Positions 28,811-40,745 of a stretch of DNA of 52,836 bases are shown piece after piece. The DNA is from a virus: IMG/VR virus record IMGVR_UViG_3300025738_000002; one strand, written 5' to 3'. The notes under the pieces were generated by a model that worked only from the letters and a program-made list of their open reading frames with translations, was not told the DNA's origin and did not search any database. The position numbers and the translations under genes were made by a program. Within the stretch, counting starts at the first letter, position 1; each line of letters begins with the position of its first letter.

Positions 28811-28839
28811 GATCCAGATCCCATTTATTAACCATAACG

Positions 28840-28858
28840 TGACACACAGTGTGTGTCC
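28840..28858. promoter_or_regulatory. Palindromic box GACACAC-AGT-GTGTGTC in the parA leader/promoter
   Basis: Perfect 7-bp arms. It lies just downstream of a TATTAT -10-like hexamer on the minus strand. Confidence 0.65.
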
Positions 28859-28891
28859 AATGTGTGCCATAATACACTAAATAGAGGCGTT

Positions 28892-28909
28892 TGACACACA
28901 CCGTGTGTA
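28892..28909. promoter_or_regulatory. Palindromic box TGACACAC-ACC-GTGTGTAA at the parA -35 region
   Basis: Same family. It overlaps a TGTCAA -35-like hexamer (minus strand), 16 nt from TATTAT. Confidence 0.6.
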
Positions 28910-28983
28910 ATTTATTGGTGTTTTATTGAAAATAAAGATCTTGATCAATTATAAAGGATCATATAGGATGCGTTTTGAAGACG

Positions 28984-29020
28984 AAAAAAAAGCCGACTCG
29001 TTAGAATCAGCTTTTCTTTT
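28984..29020. terminator. Bidirectional terminator (A8, then GCCGACTC-GTTA-GAATCAGC, then TTTTCTTTT)
   Basis: An 8-bp stem with two G-U pairs, flanked by an A-run and a T-run. Confidence 0.6.
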
Positions 29021-30039
29021 CAATCGTTTTTTACCAATCAAATAACTCATTCTTGGTCGGATCGTTTTATTTGAAAGGTTACAAGCAGCGTATAGATAGA
29101 GCGCTCAAGAGGTGAGCTGAATTGTATCTATAAGATGTTTTGTCCTGTAATTATATAGACAACTCCTCTTTTAGTCCAATTTAGTTTCAATAAAACCCCT
29201 CTAAAAAACATAGATGCCTGATATTTAAGGTATTTGATTAAATGTTTATCTATCTCTTTTGCAATGAATCCTACAACTTAGAGTGCTTTCGGGGTAAATT
29301 CCCGACTGTAGAACGTCAGCCAGCAAGACCGGATGATTGGAAAAACGATATTTTGTACCTAACCCAGAATGAGCGGATTAGGAAACGCGGTTGCAGTCGT
29401 AGTGGAAAGCGTGAGGGTAGCCCGTGGTAACGATAAACAGAACTGAGCAATATTAATGGCCAGCCACGGAAACACTAGACATGCCACAAACTCAAAAACC
29501 GCTCACAGGATCGATGTTAATAGTATTAACAGACAGTACCCAGTGTGGACGAACGAGGTCTAGGGCATTTTAATGATGCTGAATCGTCCAACTGTTAGCG
29601 CTTAAACGACTAACAGAGTTCACTTACAAAAGTGTACTAATAGTGGCAACCTTTAGCTAAATAGCTAAGGGTAGCTACGCTATTGAGTTTTGGGGGCCAA
29701 TCGCCGTCTTTTAGGTTTCTTTACCAATTAAACTAACGCATCAGCGTTACGTTACGGACGTTGACCACGATGGCAGCCCTTGCAGTTTTGACAAAGAAAC
29801 GTCAAAGCTTCCAGTGCTCATTATCAAACATAGTATCAAATCGATACTATGTCATGCACTGAAATAGATGTGAGACTGACTGAGAGTGTCGTGATTTGAG
29901 TTTTCTTCCTCAAATCTAGGCGACACGGTTTAGGCAGTGGGCAAGCGTAGCGCTGGCAATTTTAAATCAAAACGAATCAAACACATACAACATACATATG
30001 TTTATTGTTTAGCCTGTTTTAGATAAAATATGCTATATC

Positions 30040-30077
30040 GATCACAAACTGATCTCGTATTCGATCAATATCTGATC
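30040..30077. repeat. Four GATC sites spaced 11, 12 and 11 bp apart (helically phased Dam-type sites)
   Basis: GATC begins at 30040, 30051, 30063 and 30074, within alternating TCGATCA / CTGATC units. Confidence 0.8.
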
Positions 30078-30120
30078 ACATATGAATATTAGTATATGAA
30101 CACTATCTGTTCAAATACCT

Positions 30121-30161
30121 GATTAATATTTACCCACAGGGGATATTAATCGATATTAATC
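30121..30161. repeat. Iteron-like 10-mers: GATTAATATT (inverted), then tandem GATATTAATC x2
   Basis: Read directly. They lie 90-130 bp upstream of ATG 30249 in very AT-rich DNA. Confidence 0.7.
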
Positions 30162-30248
30162 AATTTTTTTATTGAGTTCCTTACAAAATATAAACTTTCA
30201 AGTTATCTTATAAAGAATCACTAACCAACAAAATCAGGTATTTAAACT

Positions 30249-31283
30249 ATGAATCTAAATTCAGTGGGTATAACAGACAGGAAGGATATGCTGTGCAAGC
30301 TGCTTTTAAACAAGCAAACCATGCAGCAGATATTTAGAGAATTCGATAGTGAAGAATCATTGGCCAAGTTTAAAGATAAGTTTTTAAATGGGATCGAGGG
30401 CATTATTGATGAGAAGAACAAGGCCGAGTCAGACCGATGGAAGAAAATAGAAGAGTCAACAGAAATATTAAATCTTCTAAAAGAGCGCGGCCTAACCATT
30501 GACGACTTGCACTCAGCAACAAATATTAATCGCTCACGATGCTTAGACACTAAAATACCTATTCACAGAAAGCTAACCCATAAACTAGCCAACCTAGGGA
30601 CTCTAACAAACCCTAAGTACAATGGGGCGTTCTATAATATAGATGGAAAGCTGGTCAACGTGGTCCACCGTCTAGAACCTTCATCGCTTCGTAAAGATAT
30701 GGTAGCGGTAATAAATGCAACTGGCATAACTCGCAAAGAATTCATTCATAACGCTAAACAGTTGTTTTTAGACTTAGAGCAAAACAAAGACGGCGAGATC
30801 CGAAACCCGCCTAATTACATTCGTTCGCAGCAAAAAAAGCCAAAAATAACGCCTCTTATAGATATGGATTTACACTTAGAACACCACGACGACAACGCAG
30901 ATATTCTTAACTCGTTAGATATTGACCAAAGTGACGAGGGTGAGTCTCAACTGCTGTTTCTTGAGCCTAAAGAAACCGCCATCGTTGATCCGGTAGAACA
31001 AGATGAGCAAGTAACAAAACAAAAGCAGCTTACGTCACCACTCAAGCAGGTGATCATAGCGGACCTTGGTAATGTCGTTATTAACACAGATAAGAAAATC
31101 AGCCTAAAACTGCATTACAAAGCAATTGACTACATTCGCGCAGCCTTAAACGGCAAGATGAACTTTATGAAGCTTAAAGGTAGCGGACATTACTGCTTAA
31201 ACGTGGGCCAAACAATTCGCATAATCACCGAAGACAAGCACGATTTCCGCATCATGGACGTTAAAACATTTAATAAACTATAA
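30249..31283 (+). CDS. Hypothetical 344-aa protein (candidate Rep-like or toxin-domain protein; acidic central linker; RelE/ParE-like C-terminal pattern)
   Basis: AT-rich island. C-terminal KLKGSGHYCLNVGQTIRIITEDKHDFRIMDV resembles the RelE/ParE core. I can confirm no domain. Confidence 0.55.
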   Translation: MNLNSVGITDRKDMLCKLLLNKQTMQQIFREFDSEESLAKFKDKFLNGIEGIIDEKNKAESDRWKKIEESTEILNLLKERGLTIDDLHSATNINRSRCLDTKIPIHRKLTHKLANLGTLTNPKYNGAFYNIDGKLVNVVHRLEPSSLRKDMVAVINATGITRKEFIHNAKQLFLDLEQNKDGEIRNPPNYIRSQQKKPKITPLIDMDLHLEHHDDNADILNSLDIDQSDEGESQLLFLEPKETAIVDPVEQDEQVTKQKQLTSPLKQVIIADLGNVVINTDKKISLKLHYKAIDYIRAALNGKMNFMKLKGSGHYCLNVGQTIRIITEDKHDFRIMDVKTFNKL

Positions 31284-31376: not shown

Positions 31377-32888
31377 ATGGAAAACAACATAATTCTCTAC
31401 AGGTCTTTTGTAGACGGATCGAACATCTCTAAGAAAGAATCAGAGTGGGTTAAGAATTCCGGCTTTGAAAACTTGGGTATTTCGAGGAGGGTAAATAGAT
31501 ACTGCCTCGATTCATTAATATGTATAAAAACATTTATCTATGAGCATTTATTAGAACCTATCACCTTAACCATCTTGATTAGCGAGATGAACTGTATTGA
31601 AAAGCATGACGCATCAAAGGTTTACGAAGAGCTTAAGTTGCTAATAGGAACAGGGGTTAAATTCTCAATCGTAGGTAATGAGACTATATACTCTAGAGAA
31701 AATATATCCGAAGCGATGAATCTCGTCTTGTGCATGTTCGAGCTTTGGGAAGCTAAAAGCGAATCAATCAAAAAATCAAATTCAGCAACTAAGATATGGA
31801 GTAAGAAAAGGGAACTTATAGAGAGGGGAGAAAAGCCAAAGCTCAAAAGTCCGTCATGGTTCTCTTATGACGATATTAATAAAAAATATATTTTAAATGA
31901 TTTATCTGTGTCAGTTAAATTATGCTTTGAAAAGTACCTAGAAACTAAATCAATGTCTGCAACCGCAAAGCTCCTTAATAAGTTAAATGTTAAGACTTTA
32001 GGGTCAGCTAAAGCGTGGGGCCAAACATCAGTTAGGCAGGTTTTAATTAGCCAATCATCATACGGCCTGCTTGAAGCTAGGACATTTCAGTACGATAATT
32101 TTTATCCAGCCGTCATTTCAAAAGAGCTATTTTATTTGGTTCAAGCTGAAATTAAAAAGCGGTCAACAAAAAACACCGAGCCAATAAAGGCAAATTTAAA
32201 GACGGCAAACCTGTTAACTAAGATCGCAAAATGTGGGGTTTGTGGCTCAAGCATATTCATGCACGGAAAAAGAAAAGAGATACTAAATGGCACCATTCAG
32301 GATTATCGATATCTCAATTGTTCTAGCCGTAAATACCATGACAAAAAATGTTCACTGCCTAGCTTTAGATATAAATACGTTGAGGCAATAGTCATCGTTA
32401 TAGCTGGACTGCTTGATAAAATGCCAACGCAAAACGAAACTATTGAACGTGTCGGATACCTTCAAGGTAGGCTGATGGCATTAAAAGAAAGTAAACGATT
32501 ACTAGAGTCTAAAATAGAAACTCTCACCGAAATAATATCAGAATTACCGAGTGATATTATCAAAGAGAAATTAAGAACTAACAGCATGGAATTAGAGGTC
32601 GCTGGCGATGAAATAAGCGAGGTTAAGCAGGAGATATCTGTAATAAATCAGGTTGGTGGCCGTGAAGATCTGTATAAGAAAATCACCGAGCTATCTAAAG
32701 ATTTAACCATTGATGATAATCGAGCGGAATTCATTATTAACCTGTCAAAGATATTTGATATCTGCAATTTTAACGAAGATGGTTCCATTTATATTCAGTC
32801 TATGAAAAATGAGATTAGAGTCAATAAAACCAAGGGCGACGTTAAAATTAACACCCCTGAATTTGAGCTGTCGGTTCACGTATCTTAA
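31377..32888 (+). CDS. Large-serine-recombinase-like protein with apparently degenerate catalytic motifs
   Basis: Recombinase-domain pattern (SMSATAKLLNKLNVKTLGSAKAWGQTSVRQVLISQSSYG), zinc-ribbon (CGVCGSS...YRYLNCSSRKYHDKKC) and coiled coil are present. The N-terminus has YRS instead of Y-x-R-x-S, and NCIEK where DRLxR is expected. Confidence 0.65.
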   Translation: MENNIILYRSFVDGSNISKKESEWVKNSGFENLGISRRVNRYCLDSLICIKTFIYEHLLEPITLTILISEMNCIEKHDASKVYEELKLLIGTGVKFSIVGNETIYSRENISEAMNLVLCMFELWEAKSESIKKSNSATKIWSKKRELIERGEKPKLKSPSWFSYDDINKKYILNDLSVSVKLCFEKYLETKSMSATAKLLNKLNVKTLGSAKAWGQTSVRQVLISQSSYGLLEARTFQYDNFYPAVISKELFYLVQAEIKKRSTKNTEPIKANLKTANLLTKIAKCGVCGSSIFMHGKRKEILNGTIQDYRYLNCSSRKYHDKKCSLPSFRYKYVEAIVIVIAGLLDKMPTQNETIERVGYLQGRLMALKESKRLLESKIETLTEIISELPSDIIKEKLRTNSMELEVAGDEISEVKQEISVINQVGGREDLYKKITELSKDLTIDDNRAEFIINLSKIFDICNFNEDGSIYIQSMKNEIRVNKTKGDVKINTPEFELSVHVS

Positions 32889-40659: not shown

Positions 40660-40740
40660 GTCGGTGTAGCTCAGTTGGTAGAGCGTGAGGGTTTTTAATA
40701 GTCTCCCTTAAGGTCGTTTGTTCAATTCAAATCACCGGCG
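40660..40740 (+). tRNA. tRNA-like gene with canonical acceptor, D and T arms but a 13-15-nt anticodon loop (contains the Lys-UUU-type loop TTTTTAA plus an insertion)
   Basis: Hand fold: GTCGGTG/CACCGGC acceptor, GCTC-AGTTGGTA-GAGC D arm, TGAGG/CCTTA anticodon stem, loop GTTTTTAATAGTCTC, variable AGGTC, and GTTTG-TTCAATT-CAAAT T arm. No CCA is encoded. Confidence 0.55.
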
Positions 40741-40745
40741 CAAAA

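Follow-up and report, generated by a model that had tools for sequence, protein, structure and literature searches.

A mosaic non-coding region with a candidate small RNA and a conserved hairpin module between the partition and early operons of a marine phage-plasmid

The viral DNA of IMG/VR record IMGVR_UViG_3300025738_000002 (52,836 nucleotides, the whole of which is called the window here) contains a long gene-free stretch, and a preliminary description had singled out positions 29012-29966 of it as a hairpin-dense block with no credible open reading frame (ORF) in an otherwise tightly packed genome. The packing and the lack of ORFs are both borne out: In a greedy ORF map, the gap at 28871-30248 (1.38 kb) is the largest of the ~52.8-kb window, the second largest (709 nt) holds tRNAs and the others are mostly below 100 nt. 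From the parA start (28810; 28870 in the longest frame) to the next gene at 30249, neither strand carries an ORF longer than 62 aa. We find that the block is best explained as a set of adjacent units, most of which would act as RNA, rather than as one RNA.

On its left, the gap is flanked by a leftward parA/parB operon, which encodes a small ParA (MipZ/CbiA type by Pfam) and a 124-aa partner. On its right lies a rightward early/replication operon, the first gene of which starts with the ATG at 30249; genes on this side encode an H-NS_N-like protein, a recombinase-like protein, Sak4, SSB, a helicase, an exonuclease and a 955-aa primase-helicase that is a distant relative of RepA from N15, VP882 and phiHAP-1. 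The ParA is similar to that of known phage-plasmids, e.g. D6 and SSU5, and the remainder of the window, a JGI metagenome contig (sample 3300008251), holds structural genes and a terminase. Because ParA and its partner, a RepA-type primase-helicase, structural genes and a terminase all occur in the window, the element is, by gene content, a plasmid-like temperate phage (phage-plasmid). It belongs to a rare, marine lineage, and its host is probably Moritella-like. Judging from the gene order, the gene-free block is a divergent control region that separates the par operon from the early/replication operon, and no CI-type repressor gene was recognised adjoining it.

Searches seeded with ParA homologues, homologues of the first early gene, a profile of the recombinase-like protein and a 19-mer from a conserved long hairpin of the block returned only four relatives in the collections searched:

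L008/L012 (L008/L009), hereafter L008: 50.7-kb contig of Moritella sp. PE36, NZ_ABCQ01000032.1
L003/L010, hereafter L003: 53-kb contig of a metagenome-assembled genome binned as Robiginitomaculum
L006/L007, hereafter L006: truncated relative
L002: covers only 432 nt upstream of the early gene

Alignment of the window with L008 separates conserved modules from a core that differs between lineages. The 5′ module (28930-29075) is 85% identical and the segment 29747-29953 is 75% identical over 207 nt, reaching ~93% in the long hairpin within it; the neighbouring genes show 69-76% DNA identity. The ~670 nt between the conserved modules cannot be aligned except for two colinear 12-nt anchors, TTCGGGGTAAAT and the hairpin GCATTT(T)AATGATGCT. 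The lineage-specific core (~29290-29746) is unalignable between lineages: L006 has a core of the Moritella type, with 83% identity to L008 over 456 nt, and L003 has a third, shorter type. On these alignments the block is a mosaic in which two conserved joints surround a lineage-specific core, and every lineage retains 0.4-0.65 kb of non-coding DNA at this place. The single ornate RNA of ~1 kb that had been proposed gives way to a mosaic of a small RNA unit, operator-like repeats, an unalignable core and a 3′ hairpin module, and the left 130 nt of the block (29012-29143) belong to a separate minus-strand unit.

At the edges of the core in the window, two copies of a 16-nt direct repeat (TTTTTTACCAATCAAA / TTCTTTACCAATTAAA, 88% identical, repeat D4) occur, one at 29027-29042 and one at 29717-29732. 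It has a weaker counterpart in L008 and none in L006 or L003, and is either a chance occurrence or a trace of core exchange.

The comparison with the relatives also indicates that the region is non-coding. No ORF across the block is conserved in them, the ORFs of L008 in this region do not exceed 46 aa, and the alignment of the L008 and L006 cores has indels of 1-2 nt and substitutions distributed 22/23/23 over the three codon positions, i.e. without codon periodicity. The conserved small-protein gene that the preliminary description had set against an RNA was not found. What could be advanced for such a gene is a 62-codon ORF at 29242-29430 and a 31-codon, TTG-started frame that L008 and L006 have in common and that, by hand translation, covers the TTCGGGGTAAAT motif. 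The first is not conserved, and the second differs at 8 of its 31 residues (8 non-synonymous changes vs 1 synonymous), with two of the changes making up a compensatory base pair. That a small protein explains the region is, in our view, barely credible.

The left part of the block and the sequence beside it contain a GATC cluster and the elements of a likely small RNA gene, which would be transcribed towards parA:

28937-28960, no strand assigned: three GATC sites in a conserved motif, AAATAAAGATCTTGATC, kept in L008, L006 and L003
28984-29020, no strand assigned: bidirectional intrinsic terminator with an A8 run, a 12-16-bp stem and a T-rich tail (sequence and fold)
28977-29143, minus strand: candidate ~165-nt small RNA (promoter/terminator bracket, conserved stem-loop and fold)
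29150-29178, minus strand: sigma-70-type promoter, TGGACT-17-TATAAT, directed towards parA, 10/12 matches
29088-29099, 29122-29133, 29153-29163 and 29247-29258, no strand assigned: lineage-specific short repeats of the TATAGATA type round the promoter (reading and repeat I9)
L008 promoter: TTGGAA-18-TATAAT, 10/12 matches
L003 promoter: TTGATT-17-TATAAT, 10/12 matches
L006 promoter: TTGATT-17-TATAAT, 10/12 matches

The terminator had already been recognised in the preliminary description as the left boundary of the block. It makes up the 16-bp terminal stem in the predicted fold of the minus-strand RNA, and L003 and L006 have terminators of differing sequence at the same position, so the form is retained. 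In the predicted RNA, a variable hairpin at the 5′ end is followed by a conserved stem-loop, which an A-rich linker joins to the terminator. In the stem-loop, TCAAATAA (29038-29045) pairs with TTATTTGA (29067-29074) in an 8-bp helix, with CCGNCCAAGAWWGAG as the loop on the RNA strand. Helix and loop are present in all four sequences that cover them (window, L008, L003 and L006). One A-U pair has changed to G-U, which can pair on the minus strand only, and an extension of the helix contains one compensatory pair. In the same four sequences a 10/12 promoter site occurs at the equivalent place and in the same direction, as the best site of the promoter scan in the window, L008 and L003 and tied for best in L006, and 130-200 nt further on there is an intrinsic terminator. 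This combination of a conserved promoter and a nearby conserved terminator, with no conserved ORF between them, is what defines a terminator-bounded small RNA gene, and from these motifs a ~165-nt minus-strand RNA (29143-28977) is likely. No plus-strand promoter was found between 29020 and 29145.

The short repeats round this promoter are candidate operators or iterons. Each relative has a repeat of its own at the same place (TTCTATTGAT in L006, CATAAGAGTGA in L003 and CAGGGAAAATA in L008), and the presence of lineage-own repeats beside a promoter suggests a lineage-specific DNA-binding regulator. We discarded the ideas that the small RNA pairs in trans with 29717-29732 or mimics the start region of the early gene, as the short matches involved are not conserved in the relatives.

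To the right of this unit, the hairpins listed in the preliminary description are all present within 1-2 nt of where it had placed them. Folding of 29240-29970 gives -223.5 kcal/mol (z = -5.35 vs shuffles) for the plus strand and -212.2 kcal/mol (z = -3.46) for the minus strand. The excess is confined to 29500-29950, where five of nine 150-nt windows have a plus-strand z below -3 (minimum -4.3); the genome background for windows of this size has a mean z of -0.43 (sd 1.3), with 3-6% below -3. The description of the block as hairpin-dense thus holds for 29500-29950, the hairpin density of which is far above the genome background, and does not for 29250-29500, where z is ~0 to +0.9.

As the preliminary description had supposed, the region resembles no known RNA family. 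A search of the whole window with Rfam 15 at the gathering score returned two tRNAs only, both outside the region, and at E <= 10 the segment 28800-30300 gave only terminator-driven matches far below gathering scores. Rfam searches of L002, L003, L004, L006 and L008 detected nothing in the region, and ARAGORN detected no tRNA or tmRNA there. It therefore falls into no Rfam 15 family, including GOLLD, ROOL, C4, RNAI, group I/II introns, RNase P and tmRNA, and corresponds to no described RNA family or annotated feature. A hammerhead-like CUGANGA core was dismissed since it has no GAAA, no stem III and no Rfam match.

Within the core, the following elements can be distinguished:

29287-29304, plus strand: anchor motif TTCGGGGTAAAT in a small hairpin of the CGGGG/CCCCG type (12/12 nt match between window and L008, colinear)
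29305-29500, plus strand: 5′ half of the core, with GGAAA(C/G) at ~29337, 29381, 29404 and 29468 and no local excess of structure
29546-29590, plus strand: nested hairpin with outer stem GGACGA/TCGTCC, inner stem GGCAT/ATGCT and loop UUUAAUG (folds)
29592-29616, 29621-29634, 29650-29671 and 29734-29749, plus strand: window-specific stable hairpins (folds, repeat I8)

The anchor, the L006 counterpart of which is TTCGGGATAAAT, is one of only two motifs common to the lineage-specific cores. The 5′ half that follows has a GC content resembling that of coding DNA, and motifs of the AAAGCG type recur in the relatives. The GGAAA(C/G) motifs reported as GNRA-like loops do exist, at 29337-29475; they are not GNRA tetraloops, because they have no flanking complementarity and no stems that close them. 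In the nested hairpin, the loop TTAATG is kept while the stems differ (AGCAT/ATGCT in L008 and L006, GTTAGAA/TTCTAAC in L003), and for three of the four sequences (window, L008 and L006) the plus strand gives the more stable hairpin. The hairpins at 29592-29749, with stems such as CTGTTAG/CTAACAG (29592-29616), CCTTTAGCT/AGCTAAGGG (29650-29671) and TAACGC/GCGTTA (29734-29749), are absent from the relatives; the 150-nt plus-strand windows that start at 29500-29600 have z of -3.5 to -4.2.

The pair L008 and L006 allows the core to be examined for compensatory changes, the check proposed in the preliminary description. Their alignment folds with -112.4 kcal/mol (z = -6.1 vs column shuffles) on the plus-equivalent strand and -96.8 kcal/mol (z = -3.4) on the other. 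The fold is a domain with several stems, and the long-range helix of 11 bp that closes it has compensatory support. The alignment contains 8 compensatory pairs vs 3.3 +/- 1.6 in shuffles, none of 100 shuffles reaching 8, and two adjacent compensations fall in one helix (CCAGG/CCTGG to CTGGG/CCCAG). Compensatory changes thus exceed chance in the L008/L006 core, as they do in the apical stem of the long hairpin described below. By this covariation the L008/L006 core is under RNA-type constraint in that lineage.

These observations also bear on whether the core might be without function, either a joint in the mosaic or a decayed remnant. Only three elements would then be of importance, namely the promoter, the terminator and the hairpin on the early-gene side. 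The wholesale replacement of the core between relatives would fit this, as would the coding-like GC content and missing structure signal in the 5′ half of the window core. A functionless core is quite unlikely, given the excess of compensatory pairs in two cores of 83% identity, hairpins at 29500-29950 far denser than the background, and the fact that all lineages keep 0.4-0.65 kb of non-coding DNA here when other gaps are mostly below 100 nt.

The core is followed by a conserved module that contains the most conserved element of the region:

29747-29960, plus strand: conserved 3′ module (75% identity to L008 over 207 nt, alignment fold)
29875-29938, plus strand: long bulged hairpin of ~24 bp (energies, alignment fold, covariance model)

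Besides the long hairpin, the module consists of a hairpin at 29784-29809, in which the G-C pair 29791/29802 is replaced by U-A in L008, and of a stem (29812-29817/29856-29861) that encloses the perfect 10-bp hairpin 29828-29852. Its alignment fold has a z of -4.1 on the plus strand; for the minus strand, the value is -3.8 when window and L008 are aligned and -2.2 when L003 is included. The hairpin that had been reported at 29886-29926 is present as only the upper part of the long hairpin. The latter shows a clear strand asymmetry, with single-sequence energies of -27.2 kcal/mol for the plus and -20.8 kcal/mol for the minus strand and consensus energies of -14.3 and -5.0 kcal/mol: it is 6-9 kcal/mol better on the plus strand because several G-U pairs there are A-C on the other. 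The apical stem is swapped between copies (UUGAG/CUCAA vs UAGCG/UGCUA). A 19-mer of this hairpin, CTAGGCGACACGGTTTAGG, is found only in this phage-plasmid family, and a covariance model detects one copy in the window, one in L008, two in L003 and none elsewhere, so that further copies acting as intercistronic sites in the window were discarded. The preliminary description had left the orientation of the transcript undecided. On the present evidence, the core and 3′ module would more probably belong to a plus-strand transcript and the small RNA to a minus-strand one. At the right boundary, the weak hairpin with AATTTT at 29941-29966 exists in the window as described, and a role for it as a transcript end finds no support, since it is not conserved in L003 and L008.

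In L003, an 84-aa ORF (segment 6724-7197) lies on the same strand between two direct copies of the hairpin, each 85-88% identical to the window copy, and its start codon is ~30 nt from the first copy. Since the ORF is on the same strand and begins so shortly after the first copy, rightward transcription must cross the hairpin in L003. The ORF looks like a gene cassette acquired with the hairpin or by duplication of it.

A bulged stem-loop of ~24 bp on the sense strand just upstream of early genes is reminiscent of RNase III sites (the T7 R sites, the lambda N leader) and of HK022 put, and the L003 arrangement, with a copy on either side of an ORF, of the intercistronic RNase III sites of T7. 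The hairpin differs in that it is near-invariant (~93%), which RNase III sites need not be, and in that the window and L008 have a single copy per genome; such a role is a candidate only. We rejected an att/res site for the recombinase-like protein at this position, as the outer pairs of the hairpin are G-U and it is non-palindromic as DNA, and as the sequence of the element does not follow the divergence of that protein. A telomere-resolution site, as found at the equivalent position in N15, was rejected for want of a long perfect palindrome.

Core and 3′ module together could also be one discrete large ornate RNA of the GOLLD/ROOL type, which would span ~29290-29960 and act in trans. Their size (0.5-0.7 kb; GOLLD and ROOL are of the 0.5-0.8 kb class), the phage setting, the whole-block fold with z of -5.35 and the multi-stem architecture of the L008/L006 version, with its 11-bp long-range helix and compensatory support, speak for this. 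In contrast to GOLLD and ROOL, the region has no covariance-model match (none in Rfam even at E <= 10), is located in a divergent-operon control region rather than beside tRNAs, and is not conserved across relatives: the core is unalignable between lineages whose flanks are 75-85% identical. Half of the window core, at its 5′ end, lacks excess structure, there is no conserved 3′ terminator, and in L003 the transcript has to continue into the ORF. We regard this explanation as highly unlikely.

The block is followed, upstream of the first early gene, by an AT-rich stretch:

29960-30248, no strand assigned: AT-rich right flank, 25-29% GC, with tandem repeats and GATC sites

It contains two 23-nt tandem repeats (30038-30083), within which four GATC sites are spaced by 11-12 nt; a GATATTAATC tandem is also present. 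GATC occurs on average once per ~370 nt in the genome, and the right-flank clusters are kept in L002, L003 and L008. This pattern suggests Dam/SeqA control of a promoter or origin, and makes 29960-30248 a candidate Dam/SeqA-sensitive early promoter or origin. The two clusters, 28937-28960 (3 sites in 24 nt) and 30038-30083, bracket the non-coding region. A further observation in this flank concerns the 5′ untranslated region: a 16-nt segment at 30109-30124 is 94% complementary to 30232-30247, immediately before the ATG at 30249, and could on this basis sequester the ribosome-binding site of the first early gene.

The main rival to an RNA-based interpretation is that the region acts at the DNA level, as a replication origin or incompatibility region. 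In that case the short repeats would serve as iterons or operators, and the AT-rich sequence with its phased GATC sites would be where a plasmid origin unwinds and is sequestered by SeqA; the hairpins would be single-stranded DNA or cruciform signals or have no RNA role. Each lineage does have its own short repeat at the same place, the region immediately precedes the replication genes in a plasmid-like prophage, and Watson-Crick compensations do not separate RNA hairpins from DNA hairpins. The helical-turn spacing of the four GATC sites, the tandem repeats and the AT-richness beside replication genes recall oriC and P1 oriR, i.e. GATC-phased origins or Dam-controlled promoters. In contrast to these, no DnaA box (TTWTNCACA) matches anywhere in 28870-30250, no iteron array was recognised, and the feature lies to the right of, and outside, the flagged block. 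The repeats are few and in mixed orientation round a promoter, more like operators than iterons, and G-U pairs make helices consistently better on one strand. In addition, N15-type RepA proteins have their origin inside repA, which would count against an origin here. Of the incompatibility or origin idea in the preliminary description, what stands is the control region of a plasmid-like prophage beside an AT/GATC-rich stretch, and what does not is an origin of the iteron/DnaA type. We consider a DNA-level origin a serious but unlikely alternative.

The interpretation we put first, tentatively and with somewhat less than even confidence, is that the block is an RNA-based control region of the phage-plasmid, made up of a small RNA and a structured plus-strand leader. 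That the region is transcribed, where its plus-strand RNA would start and what its parts would do are matters that we infer from the motifs and conservation described above. The minus-strand sigma-70 promoter (29178-29150) would drive the ~165-nt small RNA, which would end at the terminator (29020-28977), and the short repeats flanking the promoter would be the site of action for a phage-specific DNA-binding regulator. The right unit (~29290-29960), read rightwards, would be a long structured leader or non-coding RNA with a cassette-like core and a conserved 3′ module, in which the long hairpin, directly upstream of the AT/GATC-rich promoter-or-origin region, would act on the rightward transcript as a signal for processing, stability or antitermination. 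How much early/replication gene expression the plasmid state allows would depend on the variable core together with the small RNA, and the two would thereby determine immunity or copy number, much as P1 c4, P4 CI and ColE1 RNAI/RNAII do.

Several results weigh against the small RNA and leader. A duplex scan of the small-RNA loop against both strands of the window gave its own antisense locus as the sole outlier, and the small RNA has no conserved trans target within the phage genome. Its overlap with a plus-strand transcript cannot be demonstrated, because the terminator they would share also stops plus-strand reading from the left. Promoter scans and reading of the window and its relatives detected no convincing sigma-70 promoter for the plus-strand RNA. 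The stretch 29250-29500 contributes no excess structure, and the L002 counterpart of the long hairpin is weak (-10 kcal/mol, z ~0). The covariation of the core comes from one pair of sequences, 83% identical and of the other lineage; a second representative of the window-type core was found neither by blastn against GenBank phages and PLSDB nor with a 19-mer. When the minimum free energy fold of one of L008 and L006 is projected onto the other, 16 pairs are broken vs 11-12 kept through change, and perfect Watson-Crick compensations fit the minus strand or single-stranded DNA equally well.

Phage control regions in which a small RNA is combined with a structured leader are, as a general kind, familiar. 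ColE1 has, as is proposed here, a structured RNA of several hundred nucleotides aimed at the AT-rich region upstream of replication functions (RNAII), and an RNA of ~100-170 nt on the opposite strand (RNAI) with its own promoter and intrinsic terminator at the upstream end; lineage-specific sequence would give incompatibility specificity in both. The present region differs in showing no sequence or covariance-model similarity to ColE1, in that an overlap of small and large RNA is not demonstrated, and in that no promoter for the large RNA was found. An RNA primer would not be required here, because the element encodes an N15/VP882-type RepA primase-helicase.

The RNA-based immunity regions of P1/P7 (c4), N15 and P4 (CI RNA) offer a second comparison: they are found in temperate plasmid-prophages, with a non-coding regulator upstream of early genes, and are replaced like cassettes between relatives, as in heteroimmune phages; as there, no CI-type repressor gene was recognised beside the region. 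They differ from it in that the region has no match to Rfam C4 at E <= 10, that its structured part is 5-10 times longer and that a search for repeated target boxes with complementarity to the small RNA detected none. Of the antisense control RNA suggested in the preliminary description, a small terminated RNA of antisense style is likely at the left end, and target boxes like those of P1 c4/P4 CI were not detected. What is unusual about the region is its non-coding length, the wholesale replacement of the core between conserved joints, and the near-invariant hairpin that is duplicated around a cassette in one relative.

A bolder proposal is that core and small RNA form an exchangeable immunity or incompatibility cassette and represent an undescribed class of structured regulatory RNA of 0.45-0.65 kb, which on present comparisons we think doubtful. 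If this were true, the cassette would be swapped between the terminator/small-RNA joint and the long-hairpin joint, and coexistence of relatives in one cell, or superinfection by them, would depend on it.

To our knowledge, phage-plasmids are increasingly seen as common, and the control of their plasmid state is mostly unexplained outside the P1, N15 and SSU5-like models. The present lineage carries more than 1 kb of non-coding DNA with RNA-type constraints in place of a recognisable CI-type repressor beside the early operon. Should the small RNA and leader prove to be the switch, they would represent a new RNA-based solution to lysogeny and copy-number control and would show clearly how a non-coding determinant of specificity can be exchanged as a module; should the region be only an origin or operator, the finding would be ordinary. 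The idea is directly testable, as one relative resides in a cultured strain, Moritella sp. PE36.

The relatives of ~50-53 kb, L008 and L003, are whole contigs in genome assemblies, which is consistent with an extrachromosomal prophage. The sole cultured host is the gammaproteobacterial Moritella, and the alphaproteobacterial (Robiginitomaculum) assignment of the L003/L010 contig may be a binning artefact. Searches beyond these loci were fruitless: blastn of the region (window and Moritella versions) against GenBank phages and PLSDB plasmids returned nothing similar, protein-seeded searches of IMG/VR with the two flanking genes returned no relatives, and the recombinase profile, run against IMG/VR, JGI metagenomes and a set of 5.8 billion proteins, returned the same four loci only. 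The 19-mer seed from the long hairpin matched only the Moritella contig and L003, and a window-specific 19-mer had no match. Two further sets of loci were excluded, namely P0053, an ordinary integrated-prophage integrase in a different context, and L004/L005, whose ParA is 75% identical and whose context is unrelated, with the region absent. Five matches to a DNA seed from the small-RNA core were dismissed as chance since the similarity did not extend, and GCATN{1,3}TAATGATGCT proved too unspecific as a seed.

Elsewhere in the window, ARAGORN predicts a candidate tRNA with the anticodon UUA (ochre suppressor) at 40660-40741, beside tRNA-Ser and tRNA-Met. The Rfam tRNA model at gathering score reports only the latter two, and the UUA call is uncertain.

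The recombinase-like protein (503-512 aa) is encoded at 31377-32888 in the window, 1589-3100 in L002, 4073-5611 in L003 and 14-1552 in L008. Its similarity to large serine recombinases is confined to the Recombinase and zinc-ribbon domains (residues ~111-496), and the N-terminal Resolvase catalytic domain was undetected in all four homologues; P0053, a more distant relative, retains it. From this domain content the protein may be a non-catalytic DNA-binding derivative.

Upstream of parA and outside the block, one more set of repeats is present:

28830-28919, no strand assigned: par operator- or centromere-like inverted repeats, TGACACAC..GTGTGTC (repeats D2, D3 and I2)

The motif also occurs upstream of the homologous parA in L006 and L003. 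L008, which has a different ParA, carries CATACTACAAA repeats in its place. By this placement, the inverted repeats at 28830-28919 are probably the ParB operator or centromere.

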